Shown here piece after piece: positions 14,683-16,316 of a stretch of DNA of 64,000 bases. Origin of the DNA: Shigella phage Sf24; sequence record MF327008; one strand, given 5' to 3'. The position numbers and the translations under genes were made by a program. The stretch's first letter is position 1. The number at the start of each line of letters is the position of its first letter. The notes below the pieces were generated by a model that worked only from the letters and a program-made list of their open reading frames with translations, was not told where the DNA came from and did no database searches.

Positions 14683-15462
14683 TTAATTAAAAATATATAC
14701 TTCATCAGTTCCATTCTTTTCTTTGGAATGATATATGTTAAAGACGTATTTTTTATTAAGATGCTTAACATTATATTTTTTAGACCATTCTTTAAGAAGA
14801 GTGTTTTCCTTTCCGTGATGCTCTAAAACATTCGACAGTCCAAATTTTATTCCTCTGTCATTTAAAGAATCTAAAAGATTTAAAAGGTCTTTTTCTTCTT
14901 CTTCTGACCAAAATTTATTATAATCAGCAACTGTTATAAGATATGGAGGGTCCACATATACAAAATCGCCATCTAGAATTTTGACATCTTTAAAATGCAA
15001 TGAACTAAAGATTATTTTATCACAATTTTGTTTAAAGTGATTAAAGCGTTTTTCACTATTTTTGTTTATAGTTCTTTTTCCAAACGGAGTAGTAAAATTT
15101 CCTTTATCGTTTATACGAATCATATTACTAAACCCGTGAAAATGAAGAACATAAAGTAAAAGAGGATCTCTAGTTTTATTATAATCTTCACGTAATTTCA
15201 AAAACTCTTCTTTTGATGTTTTTGATAGTTTATATTGCTTTATTACTTTTAATACGTCATCCCATGATACATTAATAAGACGCTTATACATTTCAATAAT
15301 TGGTTCTTGAATATCATTGGCCAATACAGGACCATTGACGTTCAAAGACACTGATAAACCTCCACAAAATAAATCCACGAATCTGTCATATTTTGGAAAA
15401 TGAGGCTTAAGTTCAGGTAATAATGACTGTTTATTACCTGTATACGCGATAGCTCCTAGCAT
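14683..15462 (-). CDS. dam: DNA adenine methyltransferase Dam (GATC)
   Basis: 259 aa; FCGGLS and DPPY motifs; near-identical to T4 Dam as recalled. Confidence 0.93.
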
Positions 15463-16022
15463 TATATTCTCTCATTTATTGCAGCAAAAAACGAATTATA
15501 TAATTCTTCATCATATGTATTTGATAGTAATACTAACACGTTTTGTGATTTAGCATATTCATTAAACCTTGCTTGGATAGTTGGATTATTAGTAAATGAT
15601 TCTCTTTTTGTCCATTTATTACGTGGATAATATCCGCATGGCAAAAAATCTAATATCATCAATGACACAGGGTTTTCAGTTTTTGTGTATTCTTTTAATT
15701 TCTCTTTATCTTCTAAATATATTCCAACCGAATCAATAGCTGTACCTCCACCAACTTGGTGTTTGATTTCAATTATATGCTTTTTACCGTTGCGAGAAAT
15801 AACAATATCAAATCTTCTAGTACGCTTCTTAGTTATAAAATTAGAGCAAAACAAATTATTTGATTTTTCAGTATCATCAATTAAAACCATTTTTTCTTGA
15901 TAACTAACTGAACAATCAGTGAAATATTCTTTTACTTTATTAAGTATGAAATTTTCAACTACGGCAGATATTTTATATGAATCTCCGTTTAAAGCCATTT
16001 CATGCACAATTTTATTAATCAT
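15462..16022 (-). CDS. PD-(D/E)xK nuclease-like protein, translationally coupled to dam
   Basis: FDIVIS...HIIEIKH (D-x14-ExK); stop overlaps dam ATG; GAGGA RBS before internal Met MINKIVHEM; early promoter upstream. Confidence 0.5.
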
Positions 16023-16045
16023 TATATCATCCTCAGCAATTTGTT

Positions 16046-16079
16046 TTATAATACCATAACAAGCTGAGAAAGTAAACAA
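16046..16079 (-). promoter_or_regulatory. T4-type early promoter driving nuclease-like ORF, dam and 56
   Basis: GTTTAC ... TGGTATTATAA on minus strand. Confidence 0.55.
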
Positions 16080-16115
16080 ATTTATGATAAATATTAATTT
16101 AAAGGAGGACGACGC

Positions 16116-16316
16116 ATGGTACAAAAATTAATGGCAATTGTTAATGCCATCAAAGGTAATAAAAAACGTATAGCTTTTACTATTTCTGCTATGGTAGGAA
16201 TTTTACTCTGGAACTTTATTTTATCACCTGTTGCAATTGCACATGGTATTAATATTCCAGTAGTTACTCTTGATACATTCGTAGATTTAGCATTTGCTTT
16301 AGTTGGGTTAATTTAA
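16116..16316 (+). CDS. small hydrophobic membrane protein, plus-strand gene
   Basis: AAGGAGG 7 nt before ATG; occupies the only non-coding gap between gene 61 and the nuclease-like ORF; ATAAATA late-promoter-like box ~25 nt upstream. Confidence 0.55.
   Translation: MVQKLMAIVNAIKGNKKRIAFTISAMVGILLWNFILSPVAIAHGINIPVVTLDTFVDLAFALVGLI

Follow-up and report, generated by a model that had tools for sequence, protein, structure and literature searches.

The ORF X-dam locus of Shigella phage Sf24

We analyzed a stretch of 64,000 nucleotides (nt) from Shigella phage Sf24 (sequence record MF327008; this whole stretch is called the window below), focusing on an open reading frame (ORF) that lies between gene 61 and the adenine methyltransferase gene dam. 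This frame, referred to here as ORF X, encodes a putative restriction endonuclease and may form, together with dam, a compact restriction-modification (R-M) cassette. The region is of Tequatrovirus type, with 99.9% identity to Shigella phage Sf25 over the 1201 bases compared. Early genes on the minus strand follow the order 41 ... 61 (16313-17341), ORF X (15462-16022), dam (14683-15462) and 56 (14104-14637), and the cassette and its signals comprise the following features.

14683-16105, minus strand: whole cassette (promoter, ORF X and dam), approximately 1.4 kb
15462-16022, minus strand: ORF X, 186 amino acids (aa), ATG at 16022; putative restriction endonuclease with a predicted PD-(D/E)xK fold
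15464-15462, minus strand: ORF X stop codon TAA, sharing one base with the dam ATG
15956-15954 (E23), 15809-15807 (D72), 15770-15768 (E85) and 15764-15762 (K87), minus strand: candidate catalytic codons of ORF X
14683-15462, minus strand: dam, 259 aa, D12-class N6-adenine methyltransferase; the protein is 100% identical to T2 Dam
16030-16034, minus strand: Shine-Dalgarno sequence GAGGA, 7 nt 5' of the ORF X ATG; also present in T2 and KarlGJung
16048-16076, minus strand: sigma-70 or T4-early-type promoter-like site, TTTACT-17-TATTAT with TG before the -10 element; 9/12 consensus matches
16118-16153, minus strand: terminator-like hairpin and U-run, 3' of gene 61 and within dam.1 on the opposite strand

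The first-pass annotation of the window, made from the letters alone, had placed a nuclease-like ORF between 61 and dam and had given it a stop codon overlapping the dam start, a GAGGA ribosome-binding site and an early promoter. The ORF is real, and both the overlap (TAATG at 15462) and the ribosome-binding site (16034-16030) are read where expected. ORF X corresponds to gp161 of Sf25, annotated as "hypothetical protein" in the Sf25 record, matches phrog_8706 (function unknown) from end to end (E 7e-116) and is present in 162 phage records as judged by tblastn. Its homologues reach down to 30% identity, with word-indexed and HMMER searches adding seven lineages, and in comparisons with T2, MX01 and L006 the ratio of nonsynonymous to synonymous substitution rates is approximately 0.2, against approximately 0.1 for dam. 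Taken together, the sequence comparisons indicate that ORF X is a real gene under purifying selection and not a chance ORF. A longer, 220-aa version initiated at TTG was rejected, as every homologue starts at the ATG preceded by GAGGA.

The hairpin at 16118-16153 has a predicted RNA folding energy of -14.9 kcal/mol (z -4.07), a value equaled by none of 200 shuffled sequences, and is conserved in T4. It is probably the terminator of gene 61, parting the transcription of that gene from ORF X and dam; with a promoter-like site also lying 5' of ORF X, the two genes thus appear to be transcribed as a separate unit. Of the claimed early promoter, the site itself is present at 16076-16048 and is kept in T2 and KarlGJung, and it is deleted in T4, but shuffled sequence yields such matches no less often (16.9 expected, against 13 found in the region). 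The promoter call, which draws on position and conservation only, is thus weak by itself.

ORF X and dam are linked across phage lineages

We examined the genomic context of ORF X in phages of three genera and in seven lineages from metagenomes, among which the gene occupies three genome positions. In all full-length homologues with a readable context, a gene for a D12/Dam-family methylase lies directly 3' of ORF X. Tequatrovirus genomes and the Dhakavirus MX01 have the order 61, ORF X, dam, 56, and in Klebsiella phages of the genus Jiaodavirus the order is denB, ORF X, dam, ..., ndd. The arrangement of ORF X followed by the methylase gene recurs at the metagenomic loci L006, L007-L011, L012, L013 (which adjoins rIIA), L022 and L023, and also in the two most distant members of the family, P0011 and P0013, the latter again adjoining rIIA. 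At the junctions the two genes abut or overlap, as TAATG, as TAAATG, or by 4 (L022), 7, 20 or 35 nt; the exception is the T2 allele, where a frameshift leaves a gap of 14 nt before dam.

The two proteins diverge together. Relative to Sf24, the fractional identities of ORF X and Dam in the same genomes are 0.98/1.00, 0.64/0.76, 0.63/0.71, 0.57/0.72, 0.44/0.62, 0.35/0.57 and 0.38/0.54. They are also present or absent together in Jiaodavirus, where 10 of 143 records carry both genes. As in type II R-M systems, a nuclease gene adjoins a methylase gene and the two are inherited as a unit; the methylase gene also occurs alone, and no full-length ORF X without dam was found among the records and contigs inspected or from count comparisons. 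The coupling of the two genes, which the first-pass annotation had likened to an R-M arrangement from Sf24 alone, is thus kept across deep divergence. Since gene order and overlapping or abutting frames persist over such distances and at three genome positions, the coupling, as read from sequence, is more than a local coincidence, and ORF X and dam appear to behave as one mobile cassette.

In Klebsiella phage vB_VIPKPNUMC01, the only Jiaodavirus record lacking the cassette that was inspected, a gene for a 79-aa protein (phrog_4535; L020, 853-1092) stands in place of the cassette. The slot, compared with L014 2501-3852, lies between denB and the small genes that precede ndd, and the denB-ndd interval looks like a locus for alternative cassettes.

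Repeated loss of the putative nuclease gene with retention of dam

The locus was aligned between Sf24, T2, T4 and KarlGJung, and its flanks were compared with those of T6 and RB51. T2 carries both ORF X and dam. In T4, dam is accompanied by an adjoining relic of approximately 85 nt from the 3' end of ORF X, and the other approximately 540 nt, including promoter and ribosome-binding site, are gone. T6 and RB51 have neither gene: 56 and dam.1 are approximately 80 nt apart, and in genomes of this type the sequence ...AAGCAAT is joined directly to AAGGAGG..., so that the cassette is missing as a unit. The first-pass annotation had stated that T4 has no ORF between 61 and dam, and the canonical T4 record (AF158101) indeed annotates none; its reading of ORF X as an insertion gets the polarity wrong with respect to T4, because the part of ORF X retained in the 61-dam interval makes T4 a deletion derivative.

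Three distinct deletion alleles of ORF X are found, which keep residues 159-186 (T4), 142-186 (PD112) and 122-179 (KarlGJung, an internal deletion), and all three remove the catalytic core and keep dam. Among the phage-collection records, 502 match the 61/dam.1 end of the query and 182 carry this dam, with the dam-ORF X junction in 146 and a T4-type relic in approximately 33; dam is missing from about two thirds of the matched Tequatrovirus records. The alleles indicate that the putative nuclease gene has been lost repeatedly, at least three separate times, with the methylase gene kept. Asymmetric loss of this kind is expected of a classical R-M pair. The phages T2, T4 and T6 would then represent natural R+M+, R-M+ and R-M- genotypes, and stock strains suffice to start experiments.

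A second type of variation affects the C-terminus. An A/T homopolymer run (Sf24 15478-15485) is one base shorter in T2 and T4 and longer in KarlGJung; in T2 (1677-1700 of the T2 locus) the run length frameshifts the last eight codons of ORF X, giving a protein of 181 aa that ends in NSFLLQ. The T2 form is derived, since divergent homologues keep the Sf24 form (..FF.A[IV]KERL).

Predicted fold and candidate catalytic residues of the ORF X product

An AlphaFold2 model of the ORF X product was calculated from the family alignment, with a mean predicted local distance difference test score (pLDDT) of 81.4 and a predicted template modeling score of 0.79. The model is a single compact nuclease-type domain in which the order helix-strand-strand-strand-helix-strand corresponds to the PD-(D/E)xK core. 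Asp72 is located in strand 66-77, Glu85 and Lys87 in strand 80-88, and Glu23 in helix 15-33. The PD-(D/E)xK fold claimed by the first-pass annotation is thereby borne out at the level of the model, with the catalytic residues intact; the motif itself is present at residues 71-88, although its spacing is D72-x12-E85-x-K87 and not x14. Glu23, Asp72, Glu85 and Lys87 are invariant in 11 sequences of 30-100% identity, as are His82, His88, Gln89 and the loop G93-T-A-I-D-S98. A PD-(D/E)xK fold of the restriction-endonuclease type, complete with its catalytic set, is therefore a computationally well-supported prediction for the ORF X product.

The best structural matches of the model are orthodox type II enzymes of the EcoRI/MunI class. 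MunI, a member of this EcoRI-like type IIP class, differs in that it recognizes CAATTG and shares 12% sequence identity with ORF X, with no relationship detectable at the sequence level. Sequence searches against PDB chains, using the single protein or the family profile, gave nothing useful, and an NCBIfam scan returned only noise. No DNA-binding family, such as helix-turn-helix, was matched in Pfam or NCBIfam, and no GIY-YIG or HNH domain in Pfam or PHROG. A fold search of BFVD produced a convincing match only to the orthologue from MX01, all others having template modeling (TM) scores of at most 0.44. With no Pfam family and a PHROG of unknown function, ORF X would represent a new family of putative type II restriction enzymes.

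An HMMER profile search run exhaustively over 1.84 billion representatives yielded only 12 proteins, which are family members or fragments together with a few weak partial matches (P0016, P0017 and P0010); none is an informative bacterial relative. In P0008 and P0010 a fragment of ORF X is joined to unrelated Pfam domains, and these proteins are probably chimeras of assembly or gene calling. P0016 is a highly repetitive protein of 765 aa that matches only the C-terminal 40 residues of ORF X, seven times.

Possible GATC specificity and the proposed restriction-modification cassette

T2/T4 Dam is established to methylate GATC, as the record annotation also states, and a cognate nuclease would cut the unmethylated site; for ORF X this specificity is our leading inference and not a result, and it is speculative. 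It gains some substance from comparison with DpnII. The DpnII/MboI type IIP systems resemble the Sf24 pair in having a D12/Dam-family partner methylase (DpnM) and the GATC specificity of T2/T4 Dam. The Pfam family DpnII (PF04556) is the top match for six of eight members of the ORF X family (best E 8.3e-5), and the PADLOC type II restriction-enzyme model REase_II scores E 2.4e-4. The core, as far as it can be aligned, consists of a helix Glu, RFD[IF]VI, [IL]IE[IV] and a G-G-G-[ST] loop. Alignment of the two families with hhalign covers DpnII residues 126-226 and pairs Glu23 - Glu152, Asp72 - Asp201, Glu85 - Glu214, and the loop GGGT - GSGS. The three acidic pairs are invariant in both alignments, and Lys87 aligns with the invariant Asn216 of DpnII. 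The DpnII alignment was assembled from database relatives, found with a DpnII sequence that is 99% identical to a database protein, and the AlphaFold2 model of DpnII has a pLDDT of 72 overall and 80-90 in the core. The similarity is weak yet recurs over four methods, in each case below curated cut-offs. A note in the GenBank record of phage Shinka reads "putative DpnII restriction endonuclease", so the idea already exists at the level of annotation; literature searches found no publication on ORF X.

No other 4-bp palindrome in the window is nearly as depleted as GATC, with 63 sites observed against approximately 200 expected (observed/expected ratio, O/E, 0.32). Avoidance of GATC was considered as a mark of the cassette and rejected: RB51 (1-50000), which has neither dam nor ORF X, is depleted just as strongly (O/E 0.29), and depletion is therefore a general Tequatrovirus trait. 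There are no GATC sites in ORF X and one in dam (15165).

On balance, we somewhat favor the proposal that ORF X and dam constitute a compact, mobile type II R-M cassette of virulent T-even phages, in which the putative nuclease is probably specific for GATC and inhibited where Dam has methylated its site. A single early transcript would yield both proteins, as suggested by a promoter of their own, a strong ribosome-binding site and the stop/start overlap. The ORF X product would be a small endonuclease, probably a dimer, with unmethylated GATC as its substrate. The analogy to DpnII/MboI and to its structural neighbors of the EcoRI/MunI class suggests that it would leave 5' overhangs, and its cleavage would be blocked by the N6-methyladenine (6mA) that Dam introduces. 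The phage's own genome would be safe because it arrives already Dam-methylated and, when replicated, stays at least hemimethylated. T4 DNA carries approximately 0.4% 6mA (PMC7653180), and the density of GATC in Sf24 (63 per 64 kb) would give approximately 0.3% if all sites were methylated. More speculatively, since the DNA of the enterobacterial hosts already carries Dam methylation, the enzyme would most likely act on unmethylated DNAs in the infected cell, chiefly those of co- or super-infecting T-even phages without dam. The cassette could then serve as a weapon between phages or, as a selfish element, penalize those that lose dam. T4 Dam would be an orphan methylase that remained after deletion of its nuclease partner.

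Several observations weigh against this proposal. The similarity to DpnII is limited: ORF X of Sf24 scores 15.7 bits, against a Pfam cut-off of 23 bits; the hhalign comparison of the two families gives E 6.4e-4 but a probability of 27.7%; and a Foldseek search with the DpnII model ranks the MX01 orthologue fifth among 676 viral structures (E 2e-3) with a TM score of only 0.41. DpnII has 288 aa compared with 186 in ORF X, which lacks the N-terminal 125-150 residues or so, and the catalytic motif is ExN in DpnII and ExK in ORF X. The ORF X of T2 itself has a frameshifted C-terminus, and the statement that ORF X never occurs without dam refers to the inspected records and contigs and to count comparisons, which are not an exhaustive census. 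With respect to function, the hosts are Dam+, so that host DNA would be no substrate; Dam acts in trans when infections are mixed, and any exclusion would be weakened accordingly; T2 and T6 cross freely, contrary to a strong restriction of dam-less phage by T2; and the suggested targets presuppose, speculatively, that a type II enzyme cleaves GATC in DNA containing glucosylated hydroxymethylcytosine (glucosyl-hmC). With regard to classification, the DpnII family has an architecture of approximately 280 aa with an N-terminal helical region, and the match of ORF X, which begins at the core helix, is confined to profile positions 153-235 of 278. We do not file ORF X as a member of DpnII, because its scores are below the gathering threshold, the N-terminal third is missing and ExK replaces ExN. 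The DpnII/MboI systems also differ in being located on bacterial chromosomes; the Sf24 genes are arranged nuclease then methylase, with overlapping frames, in a virulent phage with hmC-containing DNA.

A bolder version of the proposal, which we consider rather unlikely, is that virulent T-even phages use a working mobile GATC R-M cassette on each other and not on the host. ORF X would then cut the unmethylated glucosyl-hmC GATC sites of co- or super-infecting dam-less relatives of T6/RB51 type, excluding them or driving a homing-like conversion of the cassette into their genomes; T4 Dam would be a disarmed relic, and the threefold depletion of GATC across Tequatrovirus, in genomes with and without the cassette (O/E 0.29-0.32), would partly be the footprint of this restriction between phages.

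Alternative functions of ORF X

Other roles can be accommodated by parts of the evidence. T-even phages destroy host DNA with dedicated nucleases, the cassette of Jiaodavirus is located between denB (endonuclease IV) and ndd, and the host DNA is Dam-methylated; the fold alone is silent on methyl sensitivity. ORF X could on these grounds be a DpnI-like methylation-dependent, or modification-indifferent, nuclease that degrades cytosine-containing, Dam-methylated DNA, with the phage shielded by glucosyl-hmC and not by Dam. DpnI has a methyl-reading winged helix as its second domain (PMC12707154), whereas ORF X is a single compact domain without any such methyl reader. A nuclease of this kind would need no methylase of its own in Dam+ hosts, yet ORF X was never seen alone and co-diverges with Dam, and loss of the nuclease with dam kept, never the reverse, better fits a protective methylase. 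We judge such a role improbable, and to much the same degree doubt that ORF X is a selfish endonuclease of the free-standing homing type, as encoded by seg/mob, which would cut the cassette-less allele of a co-infecting phage, copy itself into that genome with dam as a hitch-hiker and restrict no GATC. The polymorphism in presence and absence fits homing. A homing endonuclease depends on its target site, however, and not on a passenger gene, and the partner that stays constant for ORF X is Dam, at three positions in the genome and among homologues of as little as 30% identity; the frames of the two genes overlap and the proteins co-diverge. A homing cassette would not usually decay by losing only its nuclease, time and again, while dam is retained, and the structural matches are to orthodox type II enzymes, with neither a GIY-YIG nor an HNH domain.

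The location of ORF X among the replication genes 61, 41 and 56 hints at repair or recombination. MutH is a PD-(D/E)xK enzyme that senses the methylation state of GATC, and T4 replication leans heavily on recombination, so that ORF X might be a MutH-like strand-discriminating nickase or a repair nuclease guided by Dam hemimethylation, for example in starting repair or recombination-dependent replication. Neither the fold nor the family searches lend support to this role, and we think it very unlikely. Least credible of all is a catalytically dead PD-(D/E)xK scaffold that binds DNA, for instance as a regulator of dam expression or an anti-defense decoy. Many PD-(D/E)xK folds are inactive, the protein is small (186 aa), and the Sf25 annotators' guess was "putative effector protein"; but the family-wide invariance of Glu23, Asp72, Glu85 and Lys87 is unexpected for an inactive scaffold, Pfam and NCBIfam offer no DNA-binding family, and the modeled structure consists of one nuclease-type domain.

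Relation to known systems

R-M systems are encoded by other viruses. The chlorella virus system R.CviAI/M.CviAI is reported to cut GATC and to be blocked by adenine methylation, and phage P1 encodes the type III system EcoP1I. These systems resemble the proposed cassette in placing a nuclease and a protective methylase in a viral genome. In chlorella viruses, by contrast, the nuclease is turned on unmethylated host DNA, whereas the hosts considered here are already Dam-methylated, and EcoP1I differs in being a type III system of a temperate phage. In the BFVD fold search with ORF X, no chlorella-virus protein matched convincingly (TM approximately 0.3).

To our knowledge, the reason why T2 and T4 encode Dam is unsettled, and T4 dam mutants have almost no phenotype. 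The ORF X-dam module offers a testable explanation, in which T-even Dam would be the protecting member of a pair whose dangerous member T4 has lost. In general, phage Dam enzymes are seen as methylases that act alone in anti-restriction or regulation (PMC12707154, PMC7653180). The dam of Sf24 is like the orphan Dams (T4, P1 and T1) in that it is T2/T4 Dam itself, but differs in having a conserved nuclease partner, the solitary state of T4 Dam being secondary. If the nuclease is active, this would be one of the rare cases in which a strictly lytic phage has a complete type II R-M system; it would also add a compact family of restriction enzymes that is new, and a candidate means of exclusion between phages that is separate from the seg/mob homing endonucleases. 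The module also bears on phage therapy, where cocktails may combine cassette-bearing with cassette-free Tequatrovirus strains.

Neighboring genes

Downstream of dam, gene 56 (dCTPase) is a single intact ORF of 177 codons in Sf24 (14104-14637), and the Sf25 record gives gene 56 as a coding sequence of 354 nt beside a separate hypothetical coding sequence of 408 nt (Sf25 locus 1561-2323). The discrepancy is either a frameshift or annotation difference of the Sf25 record or a genuine difference between Sf24 and Sf25. On the other side of the cassette lies one further small gene.

16116-16316, plus strand: dam.1, 66-aa hydrophobic protein, phrog_2024; label taken from the T6 record

The first-pass annotation had listed it as a convergent small membrane gene, which is correct with respect to gene 61, with which its stop codon overlaps, but not to ORF X, from which it is divergent. 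dam.1 is conserved in T4, T6, RB51, MX01 and L006, with or without the cassette, and is therefore a neighbor and not a component of the module; its DNA is present in T4 but unannotated in AF158101. The gene is preceded by AAGGAGG and by GATAAATA, which we take to be a 7/8 match to the T4 late-promoter box.

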